Assembly: GCA_043777315.1 (NCBI GenBank)
Contig: JAYVPW010000150.1
Span: forward strand, 1-64,000
Direction: 5' to 3'
Source: Spartobacteria bacterium
Lineage (GTDB): Bacteria > Verrucomicrobiota > Verrucomicrobiia > Chthoniobacterales > Chthoniobacteraceae
DNA length: 64,000 nucleotides
Shown here: positions 4,209 through 33,059 of the stretch, in pieces
Numbering within the stretch: position 1 is the stretch's first letter
Layout: the number at the start of each line of letters is the position of its first letter
Notes under the pieces: model-generated
Told to the model about the DNA's origin: nothing
Database searches by the model: none
Seen by the model: only the letters and a program-made list of their open reading frames with translations
Position numbers and translations under genes: made by a program

Positions 4209-4431
4209 GCGCGGTGGCGCGTCCTTGAGAATTCATTAGTCCGAGGAGGAGGAGCGCCCGCTTCCACCGCCCCGCCGGGGCGCATCGCTTTCTTCCGTCG
4301 TCCGGTGGCTGACGCCACCGGCTAATTTCCGGAGGCCCTCCGGGCCAGGCGATCCGGAAACGACTTGGCAAGCGCTCTCATCGCCAAAGGCCCCCCGAGC
4401 TAAGGTCTGGAAACGTCGTTCGGCATTTGCG

Positions 4432-4791
4432 CTACGGATCGGAAACGGGCTCGCGGGGCGCGGGGCGGAGGGAGCGGACGAGGTGGTGCATTTCGAGGGC
4501 GGAGGACTGGATGAGGTCGCTGAAAGCGGCGATTTCCGCGGCGGCGGCGGGGCAAATGGGCTCGTATTTTCGCGCGAGGACGGCGGCCATGAGGTGCATC
4601 CCGCTGAGGCTTTGGCTGATGGTGTCGTGCAGGGTTTGCGCGAGCCGTTCCTGCTCGCGGCTGGCGGCGGCGAGGATGCCGCATTCGAGGCGGGCGCTTC
4701 TCGCCTTTTCCTCGGCGAGCTCGGCGGTCAGTTCGCGGAGCTGTTGGCTGAGGGCGGTCGCGGGTTCATCGGGAGAGGGTGGGGTGGACAT
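4432..4791 (-). CDS. stand-alone histidine-kinase dimerisation/phosphoacceptor (HisKA_3-like DHp) protein lacking an ATPase domain, ~119 aa
   Basis: H-box-like EQERLAQTLHDTISQSL; ATG at 4791; no HATPase_c anywhere downstream. Confidence 0.5.
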   Translation of the reverse strand: MSTPPSPDEPATALSQQLRELTAELAEEKARSARLECGILAAASREQERLAQTLHDTISQSLSGMHLMAAVLARKYEPICPAAAAEIAAFSDLIQSSALEMHHLVRSLRPAPREPVSDP

Positions 4792-16862: not shown

Positions 16863-17423
16863 ATGAGAGGGAAAATCAGCGATCAAGACCTGACCGATTA
16901 CGCGCTCAACGAGCTGCAGCCCGAGGAACGGCTGTATCTCGAATCGATGCTCGCGATCTCGGAGGAATGCCGGCACGACATCTACCAGATGATCGAAGTC
17001 GGGCAGATGCTCGACGAGGGCTTCGAGGCGGAGGAAGACCTGTCCCAAACATTTTGGCTCACCGGCGCCCAGCGGAATAAACTCGTGCATTTCCGCCGGA
17101 CACCCGCGCTGTGGCAGCGCGCGACCGGCGTCGTCGCGCTCGCGGCTTGCGCGGCTTTTCTGCTCACGCATCCGTTGTTTTGGCAAATGAACGGCACCTC
17201 TCGCGAAGCCGTGGCTTTCTCGAATTCGGTCTCCACGATCGACAGCAACTCCGCCACGGCGACCCCGGTGAATTTCTCCACCCCGCTGGCCAGTTTTGCC
17301 GCCTTCGCCGATGACACTGCGAGCTGGCTGCCGACCGTTTCCGAGGTGCTCGACCCCATGGTTTGCACGCCGCCGTCGTGGGTGGAAAACGCGCACCTCA
17401 CGATCGTGTCCGACGGGCCGTAA
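16863..17423 (+). CDS. anti-sigma factor-like membrane protein
   Basis: 4 nt downstream of the sigma gene; N-terminal anti-sigma-like segment, one TM helix (VVALAACAAFLL). Confidence 0.55.
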   Translation: MRGKISDQDLTDYALNELQPEERLYLESMLAISEECRHDIYQMIEVGQMLDEGFEAEEDLSQTFWLTGAQRNKLVHFRRTPALWQRATGVVALAACAAFLLTHPLFWQMNGTSREAVAFSNSVSTIDSNSATATPVNFSTPLASFAAFADDTASWLPTVSEVLDPMVCTPPSWVENAHLTIVSDGP

Positions 17424-17723
17424 AGCTCGCGCGAGCAAACTGCCCCTGATTCCTGACGCCGTTCGAGGCTTGGTTCCCGAACGGCGTTTCTGTTTTAAAG
17501 ACCTGAAATGATCCGAATTTTTGGTCCGCAAAATCACGCGAAACAACGCGAAATTCGGAATCCGTTTCTGGTCTGCTTTTGCGTGATTTCGCGTTCTTTC
17601 GCGGACCGAATCTCCCATGTTCAGGCGGTCATAATACTCCCTGCAAACCGCTTGCCGCTCCCACGCCTGAACCCTTCGCGGAACTGAATCACCCAATGCT
17701 CAGCCGCCAATTTTCTCCACGCC

Positions 17724-18791
17724 ATGCCCACCCAAACCACCGCTGAATCGCCCACCGCCGTTCCTGTCCCCGACTCCGCTGCGCCGGTCGACGACAAAGC
17801 TGCCGCCGCCATGCTCGTCGATGCGTTCAACCGCATCTCCGCTGAGATGGGCAAATTCATCGTCGGCCAAAGCGAAGTCATCGAGCAGCTCGTCATCGCG
17901 GTGCTCGCCGGCGGGCATTGCCTGCTCGAAGGCGTCCCCGGCCTCGCGAAAACCGCGATGATTCGCTCGCTCTCGCGCTGCATGGATTTGTCGTTCCGGC
18001 GCATCCAATTCACCCCCGACCTGATGCCGTCCGACATCACCGGCACCGACATCATTCAGGAAGATCCCGCGACCGGTCACCGCAAGTTCGTGTTCCAAAA
18101 AGGCCCGATCTTCGCGCAAATGATCCTCGCGGACGAAATCAACCGCACCCCGCCGAAAACGCAGGCCGCACTGCTCGAAGCGATGCAGGAACACTCCGTC
18201 ACGATCGGCGGCAATACGCTGAAACTCGAAGAGCCGTTCTTCGTCCTCGCGACGCAAAATCCGATCGAGCAGGAGGGAACGTACCCGCTCCCCGAGGCTC
18301 AGCGCGACCGCTTCATTTTCCTCGTGAAAGTCGAGTATCCGAGCCGCGAGGAAGAGCGCCAGATCATCGCCCGCACCACCGGCACCTTCGGCGCAGAACT
18401 CCAGCCCGTGATCCACGGCGACCAGATCATCGCCCTCCAGCAGGTCGTCCGGAAAGTCCCCGTGCCCGAGCACGTGATGGATTTCGTCCTCGACCTCGTC
18501 CGTTTCACCCGCCCGAAAAGCACCGACGCTCCCGCCTTCGTCAAAGAGCTGATCGAGTGGGGCGCCGGCCCGCGCGCCTGCCAAAATCTCGTCCTCGCCG
18601 GCAAAGTCCGCGCCGTCCTCCGCGGCCGTTTCCACGTCACCATCGACGACATCGAAGCGCTCGCTCCGCCGATCCTCCGGCACCGCATCGTCGCCACTTT
18701 CAACGCCGAGGCCGAAGGGATCAACGTGGACGACATCGTTGCGCGGATTTTGAAGATCGTGCCGCGAGGCGAGGCGAAGCGGACCCTTTGA
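17724..18791 (+). CDS. MoxR-family AAA+ ATPase
   Basis: Walker A GVPGLAKT, Walker B ILADEINR, typical 355-aa MoxR layout. Confidence 0.9.
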
Positions 18792-19214
18792 AAATTTTGA
18801 ATTTTGAATTCTTAATTTTGAATTGAGCGCGCTCCGTGAAGGACAACGTCATCCGGGAGAAGGCTTATTCTTTTGCGCTCGCGATCATCGGATTTTGCCG
18901 CGAATTGCGGCAGATTCGTGAGTTCGAGTTGAGCCACCAGCTTTTCAAGAGCGGCACCAGCATTGGAGCCAATGTAGAGGAGTCGCAAGCCGCCCAAAGC
19001 CGCGCCGACTTTCTCTCGAAAATGTGCATCGCCTCCAAAGAAGCGCGCGAAACTTTGTATTGGTTAAGCCTCATCCGGGACGACCCGTATTTCGTGCAAC
19101 TCCCCTCCGCACCTCTGCTCTCCGACTGCTCCGAAATCGTCCGCATCCTCACCTCAATCGTGAAAAGCACCGGCGACTCCTGAATTCAAAATCAAGAATT
19201 CAAAATTCAAAATT
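18791..19214. repeat. low-GC cassette bounded by inverted AT-rich heptamer arrays (AATTTTG)n: left arm 18791-18824, right arm 19183-19214 (one mismatch); carries a four-helix-bundle gene
   Basis: arms are reverse complements; interior ~52% GC against ~65% in the flanks. Confidence 0.8.
18836..19183 (+). CDS. four-helix-bundle protein (23S rRNA intervening-sequence protein family, TIGR02436/PF05635)
   Basis: family motifs QLFKSGTSIGANVEE, ADFLSKMCIASKEARETLYWLSLI; 115 aa. Confidence 0.8.
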   Translation: MKDNVIREKAYSFALAIIGFCRELRQIREFELSHQLFKSGTSIGANVEESQAAQSRADFLSKMCIASKEARETLYWLSLIRDDPYFVQLPSAPLLSDCSEIVRILTSIVKSTGDS

Positions 19215-19222
19215 GTCTCCCC

Positions 19223-20128
19223 GTGGCCCACGTCTCCGACTTCCTCACCCCCGCCGATCTCCAAAAGATCAGCAACCTCCAAGTCCTCGCGCGCCAGGTT
19301 GTCGAGGGCTTCTGCTCCGGCCTGCATCGCTCGCCGCACAAAGGTTTCAGCGTCGAGTTCAAGCAGCACCGCCAGTACGTCCCCGGCGACGAAATCCGCC
19401 ACATCGACTGGCGCGTCTTCGGCCGCAGCGACCGCTTCTACATCCGCGAGTACGAAGAGGAGACGAACCTCCGCGCCTCGCTGCTGCTCGATCTCAGCGG
19501 CTCTATGAATTACGGCGGCGCCAAAAACGGCGGCCCGAGCAAATACCAATACGCCACGCGACTCGCCGCCTGCCTCGCGTATCTCATGCTCCAGCAGCAG
19601 GACACCGTCGGCCTCGCCACCTTCGACACGAAGATCCGCAAATACATCCCGCCGCGCTCCCGCGTGAGTCATTTGAAAGTGATCATCGACGAGCTCCAGC
19701 GCGCCACTCCCGGCGGCGAAACCGAGCTAGGCGACGTCTTCCACGACCTCGTCCCGAAGCTCCACCGCCGCGGCCTGCTCATCGTGATCTCCGACTGCTT
19801 CGGCGACGTCGCCGCGCTCATGAAAGCGCTCGCGCACTTCCGCCACGCCAAGCACGAGATCCTCATTTTCCAAATCTGGGACCGCGACGAACTCGAGTTC
19901 CCCTTCAAAAACTGGACGCAATTCGACTGTCTCGAACGCGACGGCGTGAAGCACCTGCTCGACCCCGTGCAACTCCGCCAGGCCTACCTCGCGAACCTCG
20001 AGAAATTCCGCGAAGACCTCACCCGCGGCTGCCGCCGGCACAAGATCGACCTCGTCCCCTTCACGACCGACCAGCCGTACGCCGATGCGCTCGCCGCGTA
20101 TCTGAGCCGGAGGATGGCGCGCGGATGA
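19223..20128 (+). CDS. DUF58 (vWA-like) protein, MoxR partner
   Basis: [26 protein letters not shown] and LLLDLSGSM motifs. Confidence 0.85.
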
Positions 20129-20691
20129 AAGGGGACGGGGAAAGCGGAGAACGTCGAACGTCGAACGTCGAACGTCGAACGTCGAACGAGGAGGAAGCGG
20201 CGAATGGAACGCTGCAAGGCGCTTCGAGGGTTTGGGACTTGGAGGAACGATTGCTCGATTACTCCGTTCGGATCATTCGCCTCGCCGATGCGCTTTTTCC
20301 GTCGCGCGCTGGGAACCATGTCGCGGGTCAATTGCTTCGCTCCGGCACTTCTCCCCTGCCAAATCACGGCGAAGCGGAGTCAGCCGAATCGCCTGCCGAT
20401 TTCCTCCACAAACTCCGCATTTGCCTGAAAGAACTTCGCGAATCAAAGCGCTGGCTGCGTCTCATTCATCGCGCTCCCCTGATCGACAGACCGGAAAAAG
20501 TCGAGCCGCTCCTCGCTGAAACCGAAGAGCTCATTCGCATTTTCGTCGCCAGCATCCGCACCGTCGAGAGCCGCCAGTTCAGTCCCCGCGTCCGTGAGGA
20601 CGCCTCCGATTCCGATACTTCGACGTTCGACGTTCGACGTTCGACGTTCGACGTTCTCCCCTCCCAGCCCCCACCCGAGGAAACCCCATGA
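20125..20691 (+). CDS. four-helix-bundle protein (23S rRNA IVS protein family), second copy; start uncertain (ATG 20125 overlaps the DUF58 stop; the conserved core begins ~20230); stop overlaps the next ATG (ATGA)
   Basis: family motifs [41 protein letters not shown]; both termini are translated from the heptamer arrays ([12 protein letters not shown] / [12 protein letters not shown]). Confidence 0.6.
20131..20667. repeat. heptamer-armed hairpin element E1: left arm GGGG..GGAGAACGTC(GAACGTC)4 at 20131-20187, right arm (GACGTTC)5TCCCCTCCC at 20618-20667; the loop carries a four-helix-bundle gene
   Basis: arms are reverse complements with a G-rich/C-rich clamp; same family as E2-E4. Confidence 0.8.
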
Positions 20692-22841
20692 ATTTCCTCA
20701 ACGCCGCCCTCCTCGCCGGCACCCTCGCCCTCGCGATCCCGATCATCATTCACCTCTTCCACAAGAGCCGTTTCGAGGTGGTGAAATGGGGCGCGATGCA
20801 CCTGCTCGAGTCGGTCATCCGCACCAATCAAAAGCGCGTCCGCATCGAGCAGCTCATCCTCATGGCGATCCGCGCCGCGATCCCGCTGCTGCTCGCACTC
20901 GCCATGGCGCGGCCCATCTGGCAGGGCGCGCAGAAGCTCCTCGGCGAGGCGAAAACCTCCACGATCCTGCTGCTCGACAACAGCTACTCGATGGAAGCCG
21001 GTCGCACCGGCACCTCGAATTTTTCCCTCGCCCGCGACGAAGCCACGCGCGTCGTCAACGACCTGAAACGCGGCTCCGACGTGCAGGTCGTTTTGATGGG
21101 AGAAGGGGGCTCCTCCCTGCTCGACCAGCCGACCTACGACACCGGACGCATCACGCAGGGGCTCACGAAATTGAGCGCGGGTTACGGCACCGCAACCGTC
21201 CCGGCGTCGCTCGATTTTGCGGCCGGCATCTTCGAGAAAATGCACGAGTCGGCGCGGAATCTCGTCGTCCTCACTGACTTCCAGCGCGTCAGTTTCGAGG
21301 CCACGGAAGACGCCGCGCTCGGGCAGGCGCTCGACCGGCTGAAAAAGCAGACGATCGCGCCGCACGTCACATTTTTCGATGTCGGGCAGGAGGTGAAAGA
21401 CAACGTCGCGCTCGAGTCGCTCGACTTCTCGCGCCTCATGGTCGGCGTCGGACAGAAGATCCAAATCCGCGCGAACCTCCGCAATTTCGGCGACGCCAAT
21501 TACCCCGACCTGCGCGTCTATTTCAAAGCCGACGGGAAGGAAAAATCGGTTTCCCAGATCGCACTTTCGCCGCACGAAAAGCGGCAGGTTCTTTTCACGC
21601 ACGCGTTCGATACGCCCGGCTCGCACGTCGTCGAAGTCTTCGCCGACGCGGACGCGCTCAAGGCCGACAACAGCTACCTCGCGAGCATTCCCGTGCGCGA
21701 CAAAGTCCCGGTGTTGCTGATCAACGGCGACCCGAGCGGCGAGCCGATGAAAGGCGAAACCGACTTCGCCGAAATCGCGCTGGCTCCGAACAGCGCGGCC
21801 CGCGTCGAACTCGCCGACCTGCTCGCGACGAAGGTCGTGCGGGCCGAAGAACTGGACCCGAAACGCCTCTCCGAGTCGGCAGTCGTGATCTTGGCCAATG
21901 TCCGCAAACTCAATGACGATCAGCTTCGCGGGCTCGAGGAGTTCGTGAAAAACGGCGGCGGCCTCCTCGTTTTCAGCGGCAACCGCGTCGATCCGGCGTG
22001 GTACAATTCCGCCTTTTTCAAAGACGCGAAGGGCCTGCTCCCGCTGATCCTCGGCCCGCTCGCCGGCGACCTGAAAGAGAGTTCGCCGTCCGTCTCCGTC
22101 GTCTCGCAGCGTTTCGACAATCCCGCGCTCGAACTCTTCAACGATTCACGCAACGGCAACCTCTCCGACTCCGCGATCAAGCTCTGGTTCAAGCTCAAGG
22201 AGCCCGGTGCCTCCGCCGTGACGACGCTCGCCCGACTCGAAAACGGCGACCCATTTCTCGTCGAAAAACCGTTCGGCGAAGGCCGCGTGATCCAGTGCTC
22301 GACGGCACTCGACGCCGACTGGAGCAACCTGCCGATGCGCCCGACCTATTTGCCGCTCCTCCAGCGCCTCTCGGTCTATCTCGCCTCCACGATTTATCCG
22401 TCGCGAAATCTCGACGTCGGCAAGCCGCTCATCGCGCTCCTGCCCGCCGCGGATGCGGGAAAAAAAGCGACGATCACGAACCCCGACGGCGCGGCGGTCG
22501 AGGTGCTGATCGTGAAGAAAGGCGAGCGCGGCGTGGTCGAGTTTGGCAAGACCCAGCGGCCCGGACTTTACACCCTCACGGCGGCCGGCGGGCAGCCGGT
22601 GCATTACGTCGTCAACGCGTCGCGCCGCGAGTCCGACCTCCAGCGATTGAGCGATGCGGAGATCGCCGATTTCGCGAAACAGCATGGCGTCGCGGTCGTC
22701 CACAACGGCGCGGAATACAAGGCGCTGGATCAGTCGCGGCGGTTCGGGACAGAGCTGTGGAAACCAATCCTGTGGGCGCTGCTCGGAATGGTTTTTGTGG
22801 AGGTGGTGGTGGAGCAGAAATTTGCGGGGAGGCGGAAATGA
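20688..22841 (+). CDS. BatA-like membrane protein (N-terminal double-TM domain + vWA-like region + C-terminal TM), 717 aa
   Basis: N-terminus [24 protein letters not shown]...LILMAIRAAIPLLLALAM matches the BatA N-terminal double-transmembrane domain; LLLDNSYSM vWA MIDAS-like. Confidence 0.7.
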   Translation: MNFLNAALLAGTLALAIPIIIHLFHKSRFEVVKWGAMHLLESVIRTNQKRVRIEQLILMAIRAAIPLLLALAMARPIWQGAQKLLGEAKTSTILLLDNSYSMEAGRTGTSNFSLARDEATRVVNDLKRGSDVQVVLMGEGGSSLLDQPTYDTGRITQGLTKLSAGYGTATVPASLDFAAGIFEKMHESARNLVVLTDFQRVSFEATEDAALGQALDRLKKQTIAPHVTFFDVGQEVKDNVALESLDFSRLMVGVGQKIQIRANLRNFGDANYPDLRVYFKADGKEKSVSQIALSPHEKRQVLFTHAFDTPGSHVVEVFADADALKADNSYLASIPVRDKVPVLLINGDPSGEPMKGETDFAEIALAPNSAARVELADLLATKVVRAEELDPKRLSESAVVILANVRKLNDDQLRGLEEFVKNGGGLLVFSGNRVDPAWYNSAFFKDAKGLLPLILGPLAGDLKESSPSVSVVSQRFDNPALELFNDSRNGNLSDSAIKLWFKLKEPGASAVTTLARLENGDPFLVEKPFGEGRVIQCSTALDADWSNLPMRPTYLPLLQRLSVYLASTIYPSRNLDVGKPLIALLPAADAGKKATITNPDGAAVEVLIVKKGERGVVEFGKTQRPGLYTLTAAGGQPVHYVVNASRRESDLQRLSDAEIADFAKQHGVAVVHNGAEYKALDQSRRFGTELWKPILWALLGMVFVEVVVEQKFAGRRK

Positions 22842-23015
22842 GGGGGGAGGCGGAGAACGTCGAACGTCGAACGTCGAACGTCGAACGTCGAAGTAGGAGC
22901 GCGCGGCGTGGCGTTTCCGTGCATCGCGCGGCGCAGTTGAACTCACGACATTTTCGGAATTCGCCACGCCGGAATCCGCCACTTCGACGTTCGACGTTCG
23001 ACGTTCGACGTTCGA
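22842..23015. repeat. heptamer-armed hairpin element E2 (arms (GAACGTC)4/(GACGTTC)4, ~88-bp loop)
   Basis: GAGGGGGGAGGCGGAGAACGTC(GAACGTC)3GAAG ... CTTC(GACGTTC)3GACGTTTTCCCCTCCCC. Confidence 0.85.
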
Positions 23016-23049
23016 CGTTTTCCCCTCCCCGCCACCCGGTTTTGTCCCG

Positions 23050-25812
23050 ATGAACGAACGCGTCGAAACCACCCTCCGCTTCGTCGGCGACTGGCCCGCC
23101 TGGCTCGGCCTCACCGCGGCCCTCATCCTCGCCGGAGCCGCATGGCTGCTGTATCGCCGCGATGTGCGTCTGGTGCGCCCGGCCTTGCGCTGGCTGCTCC
23201 CGACCCTCCGCGCGCTGGCGATCGCGATGATCGTTTTGATGCTGAGCGGACCAGTGCTGCATCATCGCAAAACGATCGGTCAGCTCTCGAAATTGCTGCT
23301 GTTCGTGGACAGTTCTCGGAGCATGGATTTGACCGATTCGTCGATGAGCATCGGGCGCAAAATCCTGATCCTTCAGCGCATGGGGATGCTCTCGCCGGAT
23401 GCGTTGAAAATGGATTTGCCGAAAGCCGGCGAAGCGCTCGCCGAGGCGCAGATGCTCGCGGAAAAGACGAAGCTTTCCACGAACGCGGACGATGCGGCGT
23501 TCAAAAAGATCACGACCGATTTCGCAGGGAAAATCACGGTGGCGCGGGAGCTGATCGCGAGCGCGGGAAGCGCGGGCGATCAACTCGCACGTTTCGGAAA
23601 AGAGCTCGGCGAACCGGCGCGGGAGATCGCCGGACGGGAGTTCAAAAAAATCGATGACCGCGCGCGTGCGACGCAGGATCTCACGCGCCTCGGCGAGAGC
23701 GCGCGGCGCTGGCAGGACGAGCTCGAGGAGGCATTTCAGAAGACCGCGAACGAGGCTGCCGCGGGCGACCTTTCGCCGCTGCGCGCGGCGCTGCAGAAGT
23801 TCGACGCGATGCCGCGGACGCAGCGCGTGCAGTCGCTTTTGCTCGAAGGCGGCTCGCCGCCGATGCTCGCGAAAGTCGCCGAGACTTATGACGTGCAACT
23901 CCTTTCGCTCGACAGCGGCGAGGCCAAGAAAATCTGGCAGCCGACCGCCAAAAACTCGTCGCTTCCGACCGCGCTTCCGAAACCCGTCGGCGACGTGACG
24001 AATCTCGCGACGGGTGTGAAAGCCGGCGCTGGCGAGCAGGAAAAAGAGCAGCGCGGCGCGGTCGTCGTGTTCAGCGACGGCCAGCATAATGACGGCGATT
24101 CGCCGGTCGAAATGGCGAAGATGCTCGGCGCGCGCGGGATGCCGATTTTCACCGTCGGCATCGGCAGCCAGACGCGTCCGCGCGATCTCGCGGTCGTGAA
24201 AACGGAGGGGCCGGACGCCGTGTTTTATCAGGATCGCGTGCGCGGGCAGGTCACGCTGAAGGACGACATGCCGGCGGGGATGCCTTTCAAAGTCGCGATC
24301 CAGGACGGCGACAAAATGCTGTGGGAACAGCAGGTGATCAGCGACGGGACGCAGCTCCGAAAAGTGCCGTTCGACTTCGCAGTGAAGGAACTCGTCGAGG
24401 CGAAATTGGCCGCTGGCAAAGGGAGCGGCGTGCAGGTTTCCGGCGTCCCGCTCGATTTGAAAGTGAGCGTCTCGCAGATCGAAGGCGACCGTGAGCCGAG
24501 CAATAATTTCGGCAGCCTCCGCGTGCGCGCGGTGACGCAGAAACGCAAGATTTTGATCATCGACGGACGCCCGCGCTGGGAGTCGCGCTACCTGCGGAAT
24601 CTCTTCGATCGCGATGAGCAGTGGGACGTCACGTCGGTCATCGCCGGCGCGAAAGTCGGCGAGCCAGGATTCGCCCGTGGGACGAAGCCGGACGAATTTC
24701 CGACCGACCCCGCGACGCTCGCCGGATTCGATTTGATCATCCTCGGCGAGACGCCGCGCACGCTCTGGAAAGGCGAGGAATTGCAGTGGATCAGCGACTT
24801 CGTGAACAAGCGCGGCGGGGCGCTGATTCTCGTCGATGGCGCTCGCGGACGATTCAAGGAATACGCCGACTCGCCGCTCGCGCCGCTCTTTCCCGTCGAG
24901 TGGAAAGCGCCCGCGGTGCGCGAGGGAATCACGAAGATTTCGCTCACGGGTCGGAGCGCAAATCTCGCGCCTTTCGCGCTCGCCGCGGACCGCGCGCAGA
25001 ACGCCGAAGTGTGGAGCAAGTTGCTCCCGCCGCACTGGATTTCGGGCGCGAGCGCGCTGCCCGGCGCGGAGCGTTTGCTCGATGCGGAAGTGGGCGGGCA
25101 CGCGGTTGCCGCGGTGGTTTATCGCCCGTTCGGCGCGGGCAAGGTGCTTTATCACGCGTTCGACGAATCGTGGCGCTGGCGCTACGAAATCGGCGACCTG
25201 CATCACGTCCGATACTGGAATCAAATCGCCAACTGGATCGCGGAATTGCCCTTCGCCGTGCGCGACAAATTCATCTCGCTCGACGCGGGCGCGCTGACCT
25301 ATCGGCCCGGCGAATCCGCCGACATCCGCGTGCGTCTGCGCGACGGAGAAGGCAAGCCGGTGAGCAACGCGAGCGTCGATGCCGTACTCTACCGCGACGG
25401 GCAAAAAGTCGCGGGCATCAGGCTCAGCGCCGACGACAATGCGGGCGGACTTTTCCACGGAAAAACCGCGGCGCTGGAGCCGGGAAATTACGAGATCGGG
25501 ATCGAGTCCGCGGCGATCCCGCAAAATGAACTCAAGGCGCGCACGACCTTCAAAGTCGAGCCGCGCGAGACGGGCGAACTCACGCTGCTGAACCTCAACG
25601 AAGACCTGCTCCGGCAGATGTCGGCGGCGAGCGGCGGTCAATATCTGCGCGAGGAAAACGCGGGCAAACTGATCGATCTCCTCGCGCCCTTGAGCCAGGG
25701 CAAGGTGATCGAGAGCGAGACGCCGCTGTGGCAGAGCTACGCGTGGTTTCTGCCGATCGTGGCGCTGCTGACGGCGGAGTGGATCGTGCGGAAACGGGTG
25801 GGGCTTTTGTGA
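23050..25812 (+). CDS. BatA/BatB-like vWA-domain membrane protein, 920 aa
   Basis: N-terminal double-TM, vWA-like block (VVVFSDGQHNDGDSP), C-terminal TM. Confidence 0.65.
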   Translation: MNERVETTLRFVGDWPAWLGLTAALILAGAAWLLYRRDVRLVRPALRWLLPTLRALAIAMIVLMLSGPVLHHRKTIGQLSKLLLFVDSSRSMDLTDSSMSIGRKILILQRMGMLSPDALKMDLPKAGEALAEAQMLAEKTKLSTNADDAAFKKITTDFAGKITVARELIASAGSAGDQLARFGKELGEPAREIAGREFKKIDDRARATQDLTRLGESARRWQDELEEAFQKTANEAAAGDLSPLRAALQKFDAMPRTQRVQSLLLEGGSPPMLAKVAETYDVQLLSLDSGEAKKIWQPTAKNSSLPTALPKPVGDVTNLATGVKAGAGEQEKEQRGAVVVFSDGQHNDGDSPVEMAKMLGARGMPIFTVGIGSQTRPRDLAVVKTEGPDAVFYQDRVRGQVTLKDDMPAGMPFKVAIQDGDKMLWEQQVISDGTQLRKVPFDFAVKELVEAKLAAGKGSGVQVSGVPLDLKVSVSQIEGDREPSNNFGSLRVRAVTQKRKILIIDGRPRWESRYLRNLFDRDEQWDVTSVIAGAKVGEPGFARGTKPDEFPTDPATLAGFDLIILGETPRTLWKGEELQWISDFVNKRGGALILVDGARGRFKEYADSPLAPLFPVEWKAPAVREGITKISLTGRSANLAPFALAADRAQNAEVWSKLLPPHWISGASALPGAERLLDAEVGGHAVAAVVYRPFGAGKVLYHAFDESWRWRYEIGDLHHVRYWNQIANWIAELPFAVRDKFISLDAGALTYRPGESADIRVRLRDGEGKPVSNASVDAVLYRDGQKVAGIRLSADDNAGGLFHGKTAALEPGNYEIGIESAAIPQNELKARTTFKVEPRETGELTLLNLNEDLLRQMSAASGGQYLREENAGKLIDLLAPLSQGKVIESETPLWQSYAWFLPIVALLTAEWIVRKRVGLL

Positions 25813-25847
25813 TGATGAATGCGCTGCTGATTTTCGCGGGGTTCGCG

Positions 25848-25963
25848 GAGGGGGCAAACGTCGAACGTCGAACGTCGAACGTCGAACGTCGAAGTGGGGA
25901 AACTGAAGAGACGCTGCGCGTCGGACTCTGCGTTCGACGTTCGACGTTCGACGTTCAGCGTTC
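25848..25963. repeat. heptamer-armed hairpin element E3 (~35-bp loop)
   Basis: GAGGGGGCAAACGTC(GAACGTC)3GAAG ... (GACGTTC)-type arm ...TTTGCCCCTC. Confidence 0.85.
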
Positions 25964-26002
25964 GACGTTTGCCCCTCTTCCGTCCGCAACCCGACTCCCG
26001 CC

Positions 26003-29000
26003 ATGAGCTACAAACTCGACCCCAAAATCCTCTCCAAACTCCGCGCCTTCGCCGCCCGACGGCGCAAGCTGATCATCATCCGCGGCATCTGCACCGCGAT
26101 CGCGATGCTGCTCGCGACGATGATGACCGTGGCGTTCGTCGATCTCGTTTTCGTGCTCCCCGACGGCGTGCGCTGGGGGCTCAGTGCCGTCGCTTATCTT
26201 GCCGTGATCATCGCGGAATGGCGCACGTGTCTGACGCTGCTCGCTCATGCGCCCGGTCCGCGGCGGCTGGCGCGTTTGCTCGAACATGCGGAGCCGAAGC
26301 TGCGCGAGGATTTACTTTCCGCGGTCGAGCTGGGGACGAGCAAGGATGGGGAGGTCGTCGATTCGGAGCAGTTCCGCGCGCTGGTGCAGAGCGATGTCGC
26401 GGCGCGGATGGAAAACGTCGATGTCGATCGGTTGCTGCCGGTCGGTTTGGTGCGGCGGTATCTCGGGATCGCGGCGGCGATTTTCGTGGCGATGATCGTG
26501 GCGTTCGTGATGACGGGGACGCAGTTCGGCACGCTGATGATGCGGGCGCTGCTGCCGATGGCGAACTTCGCGCGCGTCTCGAAATTCAAGGTCGCGATCG
26601 TCGAGCCGAAGCCGGCGGAAATGCCGGTGGCGTTCGGCGATGCGGTGCCGCTGCTGATCGAAGTTTCCGGCGGACGGACGAGCAAAGCGGTGCTCGAGAT
26701 ATTCACGAAAACCGGGGGGCGCGAAGTTGTGCCGATGACTCCGGCGGAGGGCGATCGCTTCTCGTCCACGATCCAAGTGGCGCGCGAGAACGTCGAATAT
26801 CGGGTGCGGGCGGGCGACGCGATCACGCGCAAATACCGGCTGGCGGCGATGCCTCGTCCGCACATCGCGAAGTTCGAGAAGAGCTACACTTTTCCCGCTT
26901 ACTCACGAGTCGCTCCGAAGGCTGTGACCGAGGAAAATGGTGATCTCGCGGCGCTGGAAGGGAGCGAAGTCGAGCTGCGGCTCGAGCCGAATCAGAAGAT
27001 CAAGAGCGGCGAACTCGTGATCGAACAGGGGCGCGTGACCTCGACCGTGCCGCTCGTCGAGGGCACCGGAAATCGGCTCACCGCAAAGATTTCACTGAAA
27101 ACTTCGGGGACGTATCGGGTGCATCTCGTCGCGGCGGAGAGCGGATTCGAGAACAAGTTCAGCCCGGAATACGAGATCCGCGCGGTGCCGGACCTTGTCC
27201 CGCAGGTCGATCTGGAATTGCCGAAAGACGACCTCATTTTGCCGGCAAACGAGATCGTCGATCTGGAAGGAACGGCGACCGATGACCAGTCGCTCGCGAA
27301 GGTCTCGCAGCTCGTCCGCGTGAACGAGGGTCCGTGGCGCGAAGTGCCGCTGGCAAAGGATCCGGGGGCGAAGACGAAAGTGGAGCGGCGCTGGGATTTG
27401 TTCGAGCAGGGCGTGAAGCCGGGCGATTTGCTGACGACGAAATTGCTCGCGGTGGATTTGAAGGGGAACAAGTCGGAGTCGAGGTCGCTGCAGATCACGA
27501 TCACGGCGTCGGGCTTCGAGACGAAGCGGGTGACCGGGCTGGATGCGCAGCGCGAATTGCTGCGGGTGATCGGCGAGGCGCGGGCGGCGGCGGACGCGCT
27601 GGAGAAGCAGGGGAACGAGGCGCGCGATGCGTTCGCCCGGCTGCCCGAAAACGATTCGCAGCGGAAGCAGACGGCGGTGACGGCGGCGGCGGCAATGGCG
27701 ACTTTCGATGCGAAAGCGGCGGCGATTTGGGGGCAGTTGACCGCGACGTTGCGCGCCTCTTCGCCGGGACATCAGAGCGCCGATCTCGCGCTACTCGCCC
27801 GACTGCTTTCACGCATGGATACAGGATCCGCGGACAATGCGCGCGATGCGCTCGGGCTCGTTATGCCCGATGCGGGTTCGCCGTTTGCGCGCGATCAAAT
27901 GCGTGAATTTGCCGACGGAACCTCGCGCACCGGACAGCGCGCGCGGTCGGCGCACGACGGTTATAAATCGCTCGTCGGAGCCGAGGAGCTCGATGTGCTC
28001 GCGGAGAATATGTCGGTCGTCGCGAAAGAGCAGGAACGGCTCGCGGCGCTCGCGCAAAAGAGCGGCACGGATGCGGCGAAATGGGCGCAGATCGCGAACC
28101 GGATCCGGGTGATCGTTGCGGAGACGCGGAGCCTGGAGCAGTTGATGACCTCGACGGGCGAGCATCTCGGCGGCGCGTTTCCGGACCGGATCAAACGGCT
28201 GGCAAAGGAGATCGAGAAACAGCGGACGGTGATCGACGCGGCGATCACCGCAGGCACGCCGGATCAGAAGTTGAACGAGCCGACGAAACTGCTCGCGCAG
28301 GCGTGCGCGAATGCGGCGAGGAGCCTTTTGGATTTCGAACGCGAGACGGCCTACACGCCGGTGAAGAAGGTCACGGAAATGACGAAAGAGACGGGGCCGA
28401 CGTACGCGAATTTCGAGCGGTTGCGGGCTGATTTTCAGCAGGTGAAGGCGATGGACAAGTTGCCGGCGGATGCTGTGGCAGGCTTGATCTCGCGGCGATG
28501 GGACGAACGGATCGAGGCGTTCAAAGCGCACGGCGATGCGGAGGAGGCGCGGCCGGATTCGGACGCGTATTTTGTGAATGATGTGCGGTCAGTTTCGCTC
28601 GCGCTGAAGGCGACGCACGAGGCGGCGACGGACGACGCGGCGCTGTTGAAAGAGAAGCTGGCGGCGCTGGAGAAAAATTTCCGGCTGCTCGAGAGCGGGC
28701 ACAATTTGTTCGAGGTGGCGGATGGTTTGAAGCAGCTCGCGGGGGCGGAGAAGTGGGAGATTTACAGCGCCCGCGCGCGCACGTCGGCGCCGCGGGATTG
28801 GAGCTGGCTGGAGGCGCGGCTGCGGGCGCTGCCGGAGGAGCTGGGCAAGGCGGCGCTCGATGAGGAGACGAAGAAACTGACGGGCGAGGCGCAGAAGATT
28901 TTGTGGCAGGTGCTGCAGCAGCCGTTCGCGCAGCAGGTAGCGCAGGAGATGCCGCAGCGGTTCAATCCGCAGCGGGAGCCAGTGGCGAAGCGGGCGGAAA

Positions 29001-31447
29001 TCGAGAAGACGGCGGCGATGGTGAATCAGGCGCTGGCGATTTTCCGCAAGCCGATGCAGGAGGCGCGCGAGCAGCTCGCGCAGATGGTGCCGAAGCTGTC
29101 GGAGATCGCGGCGCAGCTCGCGAAAGAGACGGAGGAATTGAAAAAAGAGACGCAGGAGGAGGCGCAGAAAACGGCGGAGAAATCGCCGGCGGAAGCGCAG
29201 GCGGAGACGCAAAAAACTTTGGCGAAACAGGAGAAGCTGAACTCGGAGGTCGGCGCGTTGAAGGATGCGCTGCGGGCGGATGCGAACCAGCAGGACGTGG
29301 CGAAAAAGGAAGGGCGCGAGCGGGCGCGCGATGCGGACGATGCGCTGGCGATGTTGAAGGAGCCGCCCGTCCGGGCTGAACAGGCTTTGCTGGAAGCGGC
29401 GCAGGCGCCCAAAGCCGATCTGCGGAAAGAGGCGCTGAACGGCGCGACGGAGCATCAGCAGAAACTCGCGGATGCGCTGAATCAGCTCGCGGAGCACTAC
29501 GCCAAAGTGGAGGAAGGGAAGGCGGACGAGACGCGGATGGCGTTGCGCGAGACGGAGGAAAAGAACGGCGTGAAGGAGCAACTCGACGCGCAATTTGCTA
29601 AGGCCGAGCAGATGGCGGAACTCGCGCAGAAGTCGCCGGAGGAACTGCTGGCACAGCTCGAAAAAGCGCTCGCGAAAAGTCCGGCGATGCAGAAGGAGCT
29701 CAGCGAAATTTCCAAGAACACGCTGGCCGACGCGCAGAAGCAGCTCGATCAGGCAAGCCGGCAGGAGAATCAGGTGGCGCAGGATTTGGCGAAAATGACG
29801 GCGCAGGCGACGGCTCCGAACGCGCCGCAAACGCAGACACCGCAGACCGCGAAGCAAGCTGTGGAGAAGGCTCAGCAGGCGGCGAAGCAATCGCTCGACG
29901 CGGCGAAGAACGCGCAGAAACAGGCGGACGAAGCGGTGCAGGCGGCGAAGGCGGCGAGCAATCAGCCCGCCGTGGAGCAGGCGCGGCAGGCGCGGACGGA
30001 AGCGGCGGCGGCGGCGCAAGCGGCCGAGCAGGCGGCGCAAGCGGCGGAGCAAATGACGAAGCCGAGTGAGGCCGCGAACGCAGCAAAAGCGGTGGTGGAG
30101 AAATCGGCGGAAGCGGCGAAGGATGCGGCGCAGGCGGCGGGTGATGCGGCGAAGGCGCAGGCGACCGCGCAGCAGACGGCGGCGCAGCAAACGGGTGATC
30201 CGCAGGCGAAGAATCAACAGACTTCAAAAGAAGCGGGGGAGGCGACGCAGGCCGCACAACAGGCGGCGCAGGCGGCGAAAAACGCGGAAGCGGCGGCGCA
30301 GCAGGTCGCGGCGATGACGCAGCCGCAGAATGCCGCGACCCCGCAAATGGCGCAAAACGCGACGCCTCCCGCAGCGCCGGCAGCACCTCCCGCGGCGACT
30401 CCGAATTCACCAAATCCAGCGACCCCGGCACCGGCGAAAAATGCGCAGCTCGCGCCGGCGGCGGCGCAGCAGCCGGAGATCGCAAAGGCCGCGAATCAAG
30501 CAGGGGAGCAGGTTGCGCGGGCGGGGCGGCACGAGGAGCGGCTGCAAAACATGGCGGTCGGGGAGAAGCTGCAGCAGCTCGGGAGTGACGTGAAGCAGAC
30601 GGCGGCAGAGCAGGTTCCGAATGCACAGCAGGCACTCGCGAAGGCGGAGAAACCGGCGCAAGCGCAGGCGGCGGTGAACGCGGCGGACTCGCAACTCGCG
30701 GCGCAGGCGGCGCAGTTGCAGGCGGCGGCGAATCCGGCGATGGCGGCTCCTCCGCAGACGGGGCAAGCGACGTCGCAATCGGCCACGCCCGCGGATGCGC
30801 AAGCTCCGGCGACGCCGGACAGCGCGCAGGCGGCGGGGGCTCCGCAGAGTGCGCAGGCGAGCGCCGCGAATTCGCCTCCGCCGAGCGGGAAGCCGCCGGG
30901 CCAGCAAAGCCCGGCGATGCAGGCGCAGAGCGGCTCTCCGGCCGGTGCGCCTCCGCAGGCCGCGCCCGCGCAGCAGGGGATGCTGGCTGATCTCGCGGCG
31001 ACGCCCCCTTCACCGCAGGAACAAGTGTGGATGGCGCGGACGCTCGATGCGCTGGATGCGGCGTTGCATTCGGAGCCGCCGGGCGCGGGCGAGAAAAGCG
31101 ACCCGCAGGCGGGCGCGCAGGCGCAGGCCGCGATGGCGGCGGCCGCGCAGGCTGCGGCTCAGGCGATGCGGGCGGAACGGAGCGAGAGTTCGGAGACGCC
31201 GGCAGGGATCGTCGGGAAGGGCGATTTGCAGGTGAAGTCGAAGGGCGGAGTGAAGGCGGCGGGGACGGCGCAGGCGTACGGGCAGACGGCGGAATTGAAG
31301 GGCGCGATCAAGCCGGGCGAATGGGGAAAATTGCCGAAGCAGGTCGCGGAGGAACTGAGCCAGGGCCAGCGGGAAAAGGTGGCGGGCGAGTATCGCAATC
31401 AGATCGAGACGTACTATCGGGTGATCGCGGAGAAATCGAAAAAGTGA
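26003..31447 (+). CDS. giant (1814 aa) membrane-anchored protein with long coiled-coil and Ala/Gln/Glu/Pro-rich low-complexity tail; Bat-operon associated; function unknown
   Basis: two N-terminal TM segments, >1000 aa of predicted coiled coil, A/Q/P-rich C-terminal third (DNA-level GCGGCGCAGGCGGCG repeats). Confidence 0.6.
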   Translation: MSYKLDPKILSKLRAFAARRRKLIIIRGICTAIAMLLATMMTVAFVDLVFVLPDGVRWGLSAVAYLAVIIAEWRTCLTLLAHAPGPRRLARLLEHAEPKLREDLLSAVELGTSKDGEVVDSEQFRALVQSDVAARMENVDVDRLLPVGLVRRYLGIAAAIFVAMIVAFVMTGTQFGTLMMRALLPMANFARVSKFKVAIVEPKPAEMPVAFGDAVPLLIEVSGGRTSKAVLEIFTKTGGREVVPMTPAEGDRFSSTIQVARENVEYRVRAGDAITRKYRLAAMPRPHIAKFEKSYTFPAYSRVAPKAVTEENGDLAALEGSEVELRLEPNQKIKSGELVIEQGRVTSTVPLVEGTGNRLTAKISLKTSGTYRVHLVAAESGFENKFSPEYEIRAVPDLVPQVDLELPKDDLILPANEIVDLEGTATDDQSLAKVSQLVRVNEGPWREVPLAKDPGAKTKVERRWDLFEQGVKPGDLLTTKLLAVDLKGNKSESRSLQITITASGFETKRVTGLDAQRELLRVIGEARAAADALEKQGNEARDAFARLPENDSQRKQTAVTAAAAMATFDAKAAAIWGQLTATLRASSPGHQSADLALLARLLSRMDTGSADNARDALGLVMPDAGSPFARDQMREFADGTSRTGQRARSAHDGYKSLVGAEELDVLAENMSVVAKEQERLAALAQKSGTDAAKWAQIANRIRVIVAETRSLEQLMTSTGEHLGGAFPDRIKRLAKEIEKQRTVIDAAITAGTPDQKLNEPTKLLAQACANAARSLLDFERETAYTPVKKVTEMTKETGPTYANFERLRADFQQVKAMDKLPADAVAGLISRRWDERIEAFKAHGDAEEARPDSDAYFVNDVRSVSLALKATHEAATDDAALLKEKLAALEKNFRLLESGHNLFEVADGLKQLAGAEKWEIYSARARTSAPRDWSWLEARLRALPEELGKAALDEETKKLTGEAQKILWQVLQQPFAQQVAQEMPQRFNPQREPVAKRAEIEKTAAMVNQALAIFRKPMQEAREQLAQMVPKLSEIAAQLAKETEELKKETQEEAQKTAEKSPAEAQAETQKTLAKQEKLNSEVGALKDALRADANQQDVAKKEGRERARDADDALAMLKEPPVRAEQALLEAAQAPKADLRKEALNGATEHQQKLADALNQLAEHYAKVEEGKADETRMALRETEEKNGVKEQLDAQFAKAEQMAELAQKSPEELLAQLEKALAKSPAMQKELSEISKNTLADAQKQLDQASRQENQVAQDLAKMTAQATAPNAPQTQTPQTAKQAVEKAQQAAKQSLDAAKNAQKQADEAVQAAKAASNQPAVEQARQARTEAAAAAQAAEQAAQAAEQMTKPSEAANAAKAVVEKSAEAAKDAAQAAGDAAKAQATAQQTAAQQTGDPQAKNQQTSKEAGEATQAAQQAAQAAKNAEAAAQQVAAMTQPQNAATPQMAQNATPPAAPAAPPAATPNSPNPATPAPAKNAQLAPAAAQQPEIAKAANQAGEQVARAGRHEERLQNMAVGEKLQQLGSDVKQTAAEQVPNAQQALAKAEKPAQAQAAVNAADSQLAAQAAQLQAAANPAMAAPPQTGQATSQSATPADAQAPATPDSAQAAGAPQSAQASAANSPPPSGKPPGQQSPAMQAQSGSPAGAPPQAAPAQQGMLADLAATPPSPQEQVWMARTLDALDAALHSEPPGAGEKSDPQAGAQAQAAMAAAAQAAAQAMRAERSESSETPAGIVGKGDLQVKSKGGVKAAGTAQAYGQTAELKGAIKPGEWGKLPKQVAEELSQGQREKVAGEYRNQIETYYRVIAEKSKK

Positions 31448-31530
31448 TGAAACTTTCGCAATTTCCAGACGCATCTTCCGTTCGTGGGGAAGTCAGAATT
31501 AGCCACGGACAGCCACGGACAGACACGGAC

Positions 31531-31665
31531 GGGGGAGGGGAGGGGAGAACGTCGAACGTCGAACGTCGAACGTCGAACGTCGAAGTGTCGGATTCCGAAA
31601 GGCGCGATGCTTTTAGCAGCATCTTTTTTGACTTCGACGTTCGACGTTCGACGTTCGGCGTTCGA
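31531..31665. repeat. heptamer-armed hairpin element E4 (~46-bp loop containing its own small hairpin GATGCTTTTAGCAGCATC); preceded by (AGCCACGGAC)x3 at 31501-31530
   Basis: GGGGGAGGGGAGGGGAGAACGTC(GAACGTC)3GAAG ... CTTC(GACGTTC)2GACGTTCGGCGTTCGACGTTTTC. Confidence 0.85.
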
Positions 31666-31710
31666 CGTTTTCTGAAAAATGCTCCGACGTTTGCGGCGGC
31701 GCTGCTGTCG

Positions 31711-32730
31711 ATGGCGATGACCTTTTTCACGGCAACAGGAAGCGCGGCGGACAAGGTGGACGAGGCGCTTTTTCGGGCGTCGCAGTTTTTGCTCTCGCAG
31801 CAGGATGCGACGAGTGGCGCGATCTCGTTGAAGGGGCGAAATGAGACGGCGATGACTTCGCTTTCCGTCCTCGCGCTCGCGTCGCTGGGACATCAGCCGG
31901 GCGATCCGACGCCGGAGGGGAAGGCGATGAAACGCGGGATCGGCTACATCGTGCGGACGGATTCGCAGCAGCCGGATGGGTATTTTGGACAGAAGGATAA
32001 TTCGCGGATGTACGGGCACGGGATCACGACGCTGATGCTCGCGGAGATGCTCGGGATGGGCGCGGATGCGGAGCAGGATGAGCTCGTGCGGGAGAAATGC
32101 CGGAAGGGGATTCAGTTGATTTTGCGCGCGCAAAAAGTGCCGAAGAACGAGCACTCGCGCGGCGGCTGGCGCTACACGCCGGACGATGCGTCGTCGGATA
32201 TGTCGGTGACGGTGTGGCAGGTGATGGCGTTGCGCGCGGCGAAAAACGCGGGGATCGACGTGCCGAAAGAGGCGATCGAGGACGCGGTGAAATACATCAA
32301 GCGGCTCTACGACAGCGAAGGCGAGAAGCGCGGGAAAATCCTGCCGGGCGGGTTCGGCTATCAGAACAAAGGGCGCGAACTTTCAACGACCGCGGAGGGG
32401 TTGCTCGCGCTGCAAGTGTGCGGCGAATACGACGCGCCGGAGACGCTCGGGGCGGCGGAACGTCTCTCGAAAGAAAAGATCCGGCCCGAGGAGCGCTGGT
32501 TTTATTACACGACTTATTATTACGCGCAGGGGATGTATCAGCGCGGCGGGAAATATGCGGAGGACGGGCGCCAAGCGGTTGCCGACTCGCTGCTGCCGCT
32601 GCAATCGCGCGAAGGCTCGTGGGAGCAGGGCGGGGGAGACGGGCGGGAGGCGGGGAAGGTTTACGCGACCTCGATGGCGATCCTCAGCCTTGCGGTGAAG
32701 AACCACTTTTTGCCGATCTACCAGCGGTAA
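31711..32730 (+). CDS. prenyltransferase/squalene-oxidase-repeat (alpha-alpha toroid) protein; start may lie upstream (a CTG/non-canonical start would restore a signal peptide FAAALLSMAMTFFTATGSAA)
   Basis: repeated QxxDGxW-like motifs (QQPDGYFGQ, RGGWRY, REGSWEQ). Confidence 0.6.
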   Translation: MAMTFFTATGSAADKVDEALFRASQFLLSQQDATSGAISLKGRNETAMTSLSVLALASLGHQPGDPTPEGKAMKRGIGYIVRTDSQQPDGYFGQKDNSRMYGHGITTLMLAEMLGMGADAEQDELVREKCRKGIQLILRAQKVPKNEHSRGGWRYTPDDASSDMSVTVWQVMALRAAKNAGIDVPKEAIEDAVKYIKRLYDSEGEKRGKILPGGFGYQNKGRELSTTAEGLLALQVCGEYDAPETLGAAERLSKEKIRPEERWFYYTTYYYAQGMYQRGGKYAEDGRQAVADSLLPLQSREGSWEQGGGDGREAGKVYATSMAILSLAVKNHFLPIYQR

Positions 32731-33059
32731 AGGCGGGCGCGCGCCAAGCCCGGTTGTGGCGCTTCTTTTTTAAGCAGTCCCCGTCACGGGATCGGACTGG
32801 GGGCCCTCGCCGGTGGCGTTGACGCCGCTGAGGGCGAGCGTCACTTCCGTCCCGACGCCGAGCGCGAGGGTGACCTCCGTGCCGGTGACCGCCACGAGGA
32901 GCGTCTGCTCCGCCCCCGGGTTTTGGTAGAGCTTGAATGAATCCGCATCCCGCGTCGCCGAGCAGTAGTTGAAAGCGCACCCGGCCCAGCGTCGTAGCGG
33001 CGAGGCCGAGCGCGGTATTGCGGACGCGGGTCGCCTGCTGACTCGCCGAGCCCGTCGCC

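Follow-up and report, generated by a model that had tools for sequence, protein, structure and literature searches.

A four-helix-bundle gene inside a heptamer-repeat hairpin at the DUF58-BatA junction of a Spartobacteria operon, with an open frame conserved through both hairpin arms

E1 is a hairpin element with arms of tandem 7-nucleotide (nt) units. It lies between the DUF58 and BatA genes of a Spartobacteria bacterium, in the 64,000-nt stretch of contig JAYVPW010000150.1 (assembly GCA_043777315.1) that was analysed here and is called the window. Its loop holds a gene for a four-helix-bundle (4HB) protein of the 23S rRNA intervening sequence (IVS) family. In this study, we found that this gene is part of a 188-codon open reading frame (ORF) that starts on the DUF58 stop codon, passes through both hairpin arms and ends on the BatA start codon, and that the layout recurs in orthologous loci. 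We propose, with a probability of roughly 0.6, that E1 is an IVS-like element accommodated by an ORF that bridges it, with both arms translated and the translation of the neighbouring genes kept coupled. The features of E1 are listed below in window positions.

20109-20114, + strand: GGAGGA, Shine-Dalgarno (SD)-like, within the DUF58 3' end and 10 nt before ATG 20125; read from the sequence
20125-20691, + strand: bridging ORF of 188 codons, with ATG on the DUF58 stop, leader, left arm, 4HB, right arm, and TGA on the BatA ATG
20143-20186, + strand: left hairpin arm, a G/A-rich outer stem plus a (GAACGTC)5.7 array at 20149-20188
20239-20580, + strand: 4HB core, amino acids (aa) 39-152, from the TIGR02436/PF05635 matches, AlphaFold2 (AF2), Foldseek and dN/dS
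20239-20241 (codon 39), + strand: in-frame TTG, candidate internal start, aligned with hidden Markov model (HMM) position 1 and with the residue that opens helix 1; GAGGG lies 8 nt before it
20251-20253 (codon 43), + strand: second in-frame TTG, the start of database protein P0001
20619-20662, + strand: right hairpin arm, a (GACGTTC)5.4 array (20619-20656) plus a C-rich outer stem
20677-20699, + strand: putative BatA ribosome-binding region, with GAGGAAA (20677-20683) 4 nt before ATG 20688

Both ends of the ORF overlap the neighbouring genes. ATG 20125 overlaps the DUF58 TGA at 20126-20128 (ATGA at 20125-20128), and TGA 20689-20691 overlaps the BatA ATG at 20688 (ATGA at 20688-20691). The BatA start at 20688 is correct, since the BatA Pfam match covers aa 1-76 of 77. 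The locus has the sequence features of translationally coupled overlapping cistrons, namely an overlapping start, an SD in the upstream gene and a stop on the downstream start. The ORF of 188 aa, its two overlapping junctions and the arm-encoded N- and C-terminal peptides were exactly as in the original prediction, and the heptamer hairpin that it placed around the gene was recovered with 44-nt inverted arms, 98% complementary and built of 7-nt units. The order within E1 is an AG-rich tract GGGGAAAGCGGAG, then (GAACGTC)5.7, then the 4HB core. Two statements of the prediction did not hold. It ascribed the open frame to a unit repeated in multiples of three. The arrays comprise 5.7 and 5.4 units, and they stay open because GAACGTC and GACGTTC contain no stop among their seven cyclic triplets, whichever of the six frames is read. 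It also denied any in-frame ATG, GTG or TTG near the core, where TTG 20239 and TTG 20251 are both in frame.

The predicted relationship to the 23S-IVS protein (PF05635-like) family was confirmed. The protein scored 78.9 bits against TIGR02436 (cutoff 24), with residues 41-147 aligned to model positions 3-108 of 109, and 42.8 bits against PF05635 (cutoff 33.8). It therefore lies above the curated cutoffs of the 23S rRNA IVS protein (S23p) family and covers the whole model. The AF2 monomer model, built with 39 homologues, showed a helical bundle at residues 39-152 with a predicted local distance difference test (pLDDT) score of about 97; residues 1-38 and 153-188 were coil of low pLDDT. The best structural matches in Foldseek were BT_0352 (2RLD, TMt 0.81-0.89), Xcc0516 (2GSC, TMt 0.84) and Avd, a protein of diversity-generating retroelements (DGRs) (4DWL, TMt 0.72-0.75). 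A phmmer comparison with 2RLD gave E = 8.7e-15.

Across seven orthologous loci, the core showed a synonymous difference (pS) of 0.56-0.89, which is saturated, and a nonsynonymous difference (pN) of 0.08-0.25. The dN/dS was 0.05-0.25 where computable. Because the synonymous sites are saturated and dN/dS is low, the 4HB protein is considered functional and the loci anciently diverged. The substitution pattern indicates strong purifying selection on the core, and pseudogene status of the gene was rejected on dN/dS. A decaying cargo gene, which lost its start and stop and persists as a pseudogene in a selfish hairpin, would account for the lack of a proximal ATG and of a stop before the right arm. 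It would also fit the GC content at third codon positions (GC3), which is 0.64 in the core (20239-20580) and 0.82-0.87 in the flanking host genes. Such decay has been proposed for the S23p ORF of the Coxiella IVS, which is reported to be under reductive evolution and probably untranslated (PMC4990558). However, the selection on the core, the complete HMM match, the confident AF2 bundle and the intact frame of every ortholog make decay of the E1 gene very improbable. The 4HB gene of a second element in the window, element A (18836-19183), has a GC3 of 0.72. The low GC3 of the E1 gene persists despite the ancient residence of E1 at the locus.

The orthologous set consisted of the window, L090 (a Chthoniobacter sp. 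metagenome-assembled genome, MAG), L172, L173 (a Chthoniobacteraceae MAG), L174, L175 and L176. The order MoxR-DUF58-[4HB hairpin]-BatA was found in all six further loci, with 4HB cores 66-86% identical to that of the window. In 7/7 loci, an (A/G)TGA on the DUF58 stop lies in the core frame, which is open through the left arm. In 6/7 loci the right arm is open as well, and the frame closes at a TGA that overlaps the BatA (A/G)TG; the whole layout is kept in L090, L172, L173, L174 and L176, and its 5' half alone in L175. GGAGG lies 10-11 nt before the start, within the DUF58 3' end, in 6/7 loci. The ORFs are 180-211 aa long with leaders of 24-38 codons. Since these lengths vary among open orthologs, indels in leader and tail occurred and stayed in frame. 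No frameshift or stop was found in the ORF of any ortholog. Leaders and tails together had 0 stops in 533 frame-0 codons, compared with about 8.5 expected (Poisson ~2e-4); the expectation was taken from the 17 stops in the two other frames, with the TGA of DUF58 itself excluded.

We also scanned metagenomes with a core-only alignment, so that the arms could not bias the matches. The scan gave 80 loci of 54-73% identity, none of them in a DUF58/BatA context. About 64 of the 80 are flanked by inverted repeats, mostly 7-nt periodic, whose heptamer units vary (GAACATC, CAACGCT, GAATATC, GAACACC and GAACCCT among others). Most of these relatives have an ATG inside the loop, 5-10 codons before DLEERLL. 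The original prediction had asked whether cargo ORFs always read through the arms; they do not, and element A as well as most of the 80 relatives start and stop within the loop. Among hairpin-flanked loci, 32 lack a proximal ATG. In 19 of these, an ATG just 5' of the left arm is in the core frame and open to the core, whereas such an ATG was found only 2 and 2 times in the other two frames. The upstream ATG abuts or overlaps the stop of a 129-396-codon ORF in at least 11 of the 15 metagenomic loci examined, and an AAGGAG-like motif lies 5-6 nt before it in several. Because of this frame bias and these junctions, a start on the stop of an upstream gene with a run through the left arm appears to be a recurrent solution at independent insertion sites. 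Judging from the loci compared, a run-on that includes the right arm is a hallmark of the DUF58-BatA lineage.

An alternative is that the 4HB protein is made from an internal start, TTG 20239 or TTG 20251. The open leader would then be a by-product of GC-rich, stop-free heptamers, and the C-terminal run-on would reflect a lost cargo stop. The original prediction had left the choice between an internal start and coding arms open, and had named a complete domain well inside the loop with a misread start as evidence against protein termini translated from the arms. The domain does begin 49 nt past the left arm, with TTG 20239 at HMM position 1 and at the start of helix 1, and a GAGGG precedes this codon by 8 nt. 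P0001, the nearest protein in the databases (99% identical, source NCBI), begins MLDYS at TTG 20251, and the starts within the loop in most relatives are in line with the same alternative, as are heptamers without stop triplets and a stop frequency of merely 0.017 per triplet. Nevertheless, the orthologs favour coding arms. L090 and L172 have CTG in place of TTG 20239, and in L172 no in-frame ATG, GTG or TTG occurs from the upstream ATG to core codon +8. The stop-free leaders and tails (0 in 533 codons versus 17 in the other frames), the retention of both overlapping junctions despite in-frame indels, and the upstream-ATG bias of 19 versus 2 and 2 at independent loci also argue against an internal start as the whole explanation, which we consider unlikely.

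Several observations weigh against translation of both arms. L175, whose core is 84% identical, keeps the upstream ATGA in frame but also has a proximal ATG (MGRAW..), and its ORF ends at a stop of its own short of the right arm; as the closest ortholog with a proximal ATG, it shows that read-through is not obligatory. The seven orthologs share descent and are not independent trials. For the window taken by itself, it is not improbable that leader and tail are open by chance, with stop triplets at 0.017 per position and stop-free heptamers, and both TTG codons (20239, with its GAGGG, and 20251, the P0001 start) are candidate internal starts. A stop precedes the right arm in 62/64 non-orthologous relatives; with the loop-internal ATG of most, this means that the cargo ORF is usually self-contained. 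Finally, the arm mismatches in 77 hairpins comprised 89 G.U and 86 A.C pairs, so that there is no sense-strand G.U excess and a role of the stem at the RNA level is not demonstrated.

The hairpin itself is conserved in the orthologs. Folding of the RNA of 20110-20705 gave a 41-bp uninterrupted stem in both the minimum free energy (MFE) and the centroid structure (z = -4.6), and the stem of element A was likewise present in both (z = -3.6). The arms in the seven orthologs are 33-57 nt long and 87-100% complementary, and their heptamer units differ (GAACGTC, CAACGTT/CAACGTC, or GAACATC). Because the arms stay complementary while the unit differs, the hairpin structure, or a process that homogenises the arms, is maintained. 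In the MFE fold, the BatA SD GAGGAAA pairs with UUUCCUC (20693-20699, BatA codons 3-4), and the ATG/TGA overlap lies in a small loop. With such pairing, BatA initiation would depend on an arriving ribosome.

Processing of the IVS type could instead dominate at this locus. RNase III would cut the 44-bp stem, free a stem-closed 4HB RNA and part the DUF58 and BatA messages, and the full ORF would rarely or never be translated as a unit. The long stem in MFE and centroid structures is consistent with this, as are the match in layout to the Coxiella IVS, which is excised by RNase III (PMC4990558), and the cutting of Correia elements in mRNAs by RNase III at their inverted repeats (PMC10969869). The loop-contained ORF of most relatives would suit translation from an excised RNA. 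However, dominant processing leaves the stop-free in-frame leader and tail and the conserved ATGA junctions unexplained. Cleavage would remove the ATG and its SD, which are located outside the stem, and the mismatches show no sense-strand G.U excess. We regard it as distinctly improbable that processing dominates. It is compatible with a bridging ORF, as untranslated transcripts could be processed, and the stem may serve as an RNase III substrate or as a DNA-level feature of the element.

Two further comparisons concerned hairpins beyond E1. The polarity of empty hairpins relative to the coding strand, which was assigned from GC by codon phase, was A-rich 5' arm in 11, T-rich in 4 and equal in 5, an underpowered sample with only 20 usable hairpins. 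A stop triplet was present in 4/29 traversed and 26/42 non-traversed arms, a comparison that is partly circular and no primary evidence.

According to the reading that we favour, in which an ORF bridges E1, an IVS-like element would have become fixed at the stop-start junction of the coupled MoxR-DUF58-BatA operon in a Chthoniobacterales-type genome. Its cargo gene, without a proximal ATG and without a stop before the right arm, would have merged into one 188-codon ORF. Ribosomes would initiate at ATG 20125 via GGAGGA in the DUF58 3' end, pass through both arms and the 4HB domain between them, and terminate at the TGA on the BatA ATG. Such read-through would keep the translation of DUF58, 4HB and BatA coupled across an insert of 563 nt that has a 44-bp stem. 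We infer that this coupling is the selective reason for the layout, and the surviving lineages would be those whose frame stays open to the stop on the BatA start. The 4HB domain would be made with two disordered, arm-encoded tails that have no conserved peptide sequence, and the arm-encoded segments would evolve under nucleic-acid complementarity and a no-stop constraint. A short isoform from TTG 20239 or TTG 20251 may also be made, and RNase III processing of untranslated transcripts remains plausible.

Some peptides next to the arms recur among the homologues. Many orthologs (homologues P0013-P0105) share ALPGAE/ALRAAE on the N-terminal side of the left arm and QPPAGP on the C-terminal side of the right arm. 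These peptides are the translated complementary GC-rich outer stem, which is itself conserved. Basic C-terminal tails of the KKRR type coincide with the purine-rich BatA ribosome-binding region. The apparent peptide conservation around the arms (ALPGAE, QPPAGP, KKRR) is thus probably at the nucleotide level. Among the 118 closest database proteins, a 7-residue-periodic leader was found in 52, such a tail in 46, and both in 31. Annotators should be aware that 7-residue-periodic leaders and tails of database proteins are hairpin arms read as protein.

E1 is one of several hairpins in a co-directional + strand gene row at 17.7-31.7 kb of the window. A hairpin with tandem 7-nt arms is present in every spacer of the MoxR-DUF58-BatA gene row, which is composed as follows.

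17724-18791, + strand: MoxR-type AAA ATPase
18790-19217, + strand: element A, a (AATTTTG)n/(CAAAATT)n hairpin with arms of 38 nt, 92% complementary
19223-20128, + strand: DUF58/VWA
20688-22841, + strand: BatA-N/VWA protein
22838-23053, + strand: E2, an empty (GAACGTC)n hairpin with arms at 22855-22892 and 22983-23019 and a 71-codon mini-ORF across it
23050-25812, + strand: 920-aa ORF
25812-26006, + strand: E3, an empty hairpin with arms at 25857-25893 and 25931-25969 and a 64-codon mini-ORF across it
26003-31447, + strand: 1814-aa ORF
31447-31682, + strand: E4, an empty hairpin with arms at 31547-31584 and 31633-31669 and an open frame through it

The genes neighbouring the seven orthologous loci encode MoxR, DUF58, BatA and large exported proteins, with sigma-70 genes in some. 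Rfam at gathering thresholds gave no family, rRNA included, in 17000-33000 of the window. In 17-32.5 kb, a scan for sigma-70 promoters found none, and terminator-like sites were not enriched (18, compared with 21 in shuffles).

Hairpins of the (GAACGTC)n type occur four times within the 64 kb (E1-E4), in the multiple copies expected of a repeated palindrome, and E2-E4 are short-loop copies of the E1 unit. The 14-mer GAACGTCGAACGTC has 29 occurrences in the window, compared with 0.09 expected by chance. Each empty hairpin is crossed by an open frame. The mini-ORF of E2 runs from ATG 22838, in an ATGA shared with the BatA stop, to TGA 23051, in an ATGA shared with the start of the next gene, and that of E3 from ATG 25812 (TGATG, on the upstream stop) to TGA 26004 (ATGA of the next gene). 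The frame from ATG 31447, on the upstream stop, is open across E4 and enters the downstream ORF in frame. Comparable bridging mini-ORFs cross hairpins of other heptamers in L090 (BatA|920, the junction of BatA with the 920-aa ORF), L173 (MoxR|DUF58) and L174 (BatA|920). Among 18 short-loop hairpins just 3' of a gene, the frame of an NTGA-type start was open throughout in 13/18, compared with 5/18 for the control frame. The 5' flank of E4 contains three AGCCACGGAC decamers (31501-31530) as well as repeats of GGGGA. The E4 loop contains a small hairpin followed by TTTTTT (31606-31629), which fits an intrinsic-terminator pattern on the + strand.

The spacers are polymorphic among the orthologous loci. 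The BatA|920 junction holds a hairpin in the window, L090 and L174, each time of a different unit. In L173 the two genes simply overlap by ATGA, and the spacers of L176 and L172 are 8 nt and 28 nt long without a hairpin. Taken at the sequence level, this presence and absence is the pattern expected of a mobile or recurrently generated element. ATGA is found on both sides of E1, E2 and E3. This may be a target-site duplication, but the identical pattern would arise if a stop and a start codon were selected for, and no longer duplication was seen. The hairpin-free BatA|920 spacers of L172 (6879-6914) and L176 (6750-6765) are flanked by two ATGA motifs; that of L172 is an 11-codon mini-ORF, and that of L176 is ATGAGCGACAGCATGA. 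These short spacers may be remnants of hairpins that were lost, or forerunners of insertion sites.

Both element A and E1 hold a TIGR02436/PF05635 gene in the loop. In element A, the gene lies wholly within the loop (GTG 18836 to TGA 19183), and its product is a paralogue that shares ~41% identity with the E1 core across residues 32-108. The GC content of element A is 0.50, compared with 0.645 for the window. The MoxR|DUF58 spacer contains an A-type element in L175 and an empty, degenerate (GAACGTC)-type hairpin in L090. Each 4HB variant seems to travel with its own heptamer. L175 is the closest relative that carries both 4HB elements. Its DUF58|BatA spacer (4400-4659) holds extra nested or tandem heptamer hairpins 3' of the 4HB stop, where elements appear to pile up.

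Other loci show where such elements are found outside this operon. In L177 (3189-4617), a 4HB hairpin element occupies the place where the central part of a tyrosine-recombinase (phage integrase) gene would be expected. Fragments of 270 aa (N-terminal) and 46 aa (C-terminal) flank the element, whose ATG is on the stop of the upstream fragment. Because this integrase gene is interrupted, 4HB elements also appear to land in, or replace, coding sequence. In L178 (3895-4485), the permease and ATPase genes of an oligopeptide ABC-transporter operon are separated by a self-contained 4HB element. The element brings a GGAGGG SD and an ATG of its own, stops before the right arm, and represents a further co-directional intercistronic insertion. 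Exact (GAACGTC)4 arrays were found, among the matches listed (L001-L089), in MAGs labelled Chthoniobacterales, Gemmatimonadales, Planctomycetota, Rhodothermales, Acidobacteriota, Desulfobacterales and Burkholderiales, as well as in Streptomyces and Cellulomonas, and the true distribution is wider. One Gemmatimonadales MAG among these matches carries many copies. The (GAACGTC)4 loci L001-L089 also have short-loop hairpins built from many other heptamers.

Knowledge of S23p/IVS elements dates from the early 1990s. To our knowledge, the S23p protein has no known function, and we know of no established mode by which these elements spread. The locus described here has IVS architecture outside rRNA, in a protein-coding operon, with a selected protein and a frame conserved through both arms. 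As a tentative and rather doubtful extension, the heptamer hairpins with or without a 4HB gene may form an undescribed class of operon-resident mobile elements that are kin of the rRNA IVS. They would be transparent to translation, with stop-free arms and with a bridging ORF that restores coupling at stop-start junctions. The 4HB protein might then be the factor of the element itself, acting on the RNA or DNA heptamer stem, by analogy with Avd, which binds nucleic acid and polymerase. If true, the nature and spread of IVS/S23p elements, a 30-year-old question, would become directly testable. The locus also offers a setting in which the expression of an IVS-family protein can be assayed via its effect on neighbouring genes. 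In addition, bridging ORFs over stop-free heptamers provide a testable idea for how long perfect hairpins are tolerated between coupled genes.

We compared E1 with known systems. PF05635 is the commonest DGR-associated family (PMC10053308), and the E1 protein shares a homologous four-helix-bundle fold with Avd (PDB 4DWL; PMC10053308). No DGR reverse transcriptase or template/variable repeats adjoin E1, and the rest of the window was not scanned for reverse transcriptase. Rickettsia palindromic elements (RPEs; PMC10969869) resemble E1 in that palindromes are tolerated through in-frame translation. RPEs insert in host ORFs and join host proteins, whereas E1 is intergenic and has its own ORF and a cargo domain. 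Correia elements and the enterobacterial repetitive intergenic consensus/intergenic repeat units (ERIC/IRU; PMC10969869) are, like this element, near-identical inverted repeats in co-transcribed spacers whose presence varies at orthologous spacers, and Correia/ERIC hairpins form in operon mRNA (PMC10969869). Unlike them, the element of this study has tandem-heptamer arms with a lineage-specific unit, a conserved protein gene in some copies, and bridging ORFs. No transposase partner for the heptamer hairpins was identified in the operon, and none was sought outside it. Short tandemly repeated repetitive (STRR) sequences of cyanobacteria reportedly consist of tandem 7-nt units amplified in non-coding spacers, and may be a further analogue. 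We found no paper on 4HB genes in heptamer hairpins outside rRNA or in mRNA operons, or on bridging ORFs over them, in an incomplete coverage of the literature that provides absence of evidence only.

The closest likeness in layout is to the S23p IVS of 23S rRNA (Coxiella burnetii, Leptospira; PMC4990558). Like E1, it has complementary borders that pair into a long stem, with a PF05635/S23p ORF in the loop, and it is transcribed within a host operon. The Coxiella IVS contains AGAAGA, then 3-4 tandem GACAGAT heptamers of strain-variable copy number, then the S23p ORF (PMC4990558), which is the same order of AG-rich tract, tandem heptamers and S23p ORF as in E1. E1 has the long-stem borders and the loop ORF with AG tract and heptamers. 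However, its site is the DUF58-BatA junction of an mRNA operon and not helix 9, 25 or 45 of 23S rRNA; we do not file it as an IVS, because the defining location inside an rRNA gene is lacking. In contrast to the Coxiella IVS, the heptamers of E1 build both arms. The E1 ORF, unlike that of the 23S rRNA IVS, spans both arms with ATGA overlaps with both neighbours, and its protein shows the signs of strong purifying selection where the Coxiella ORF is described as decaying.

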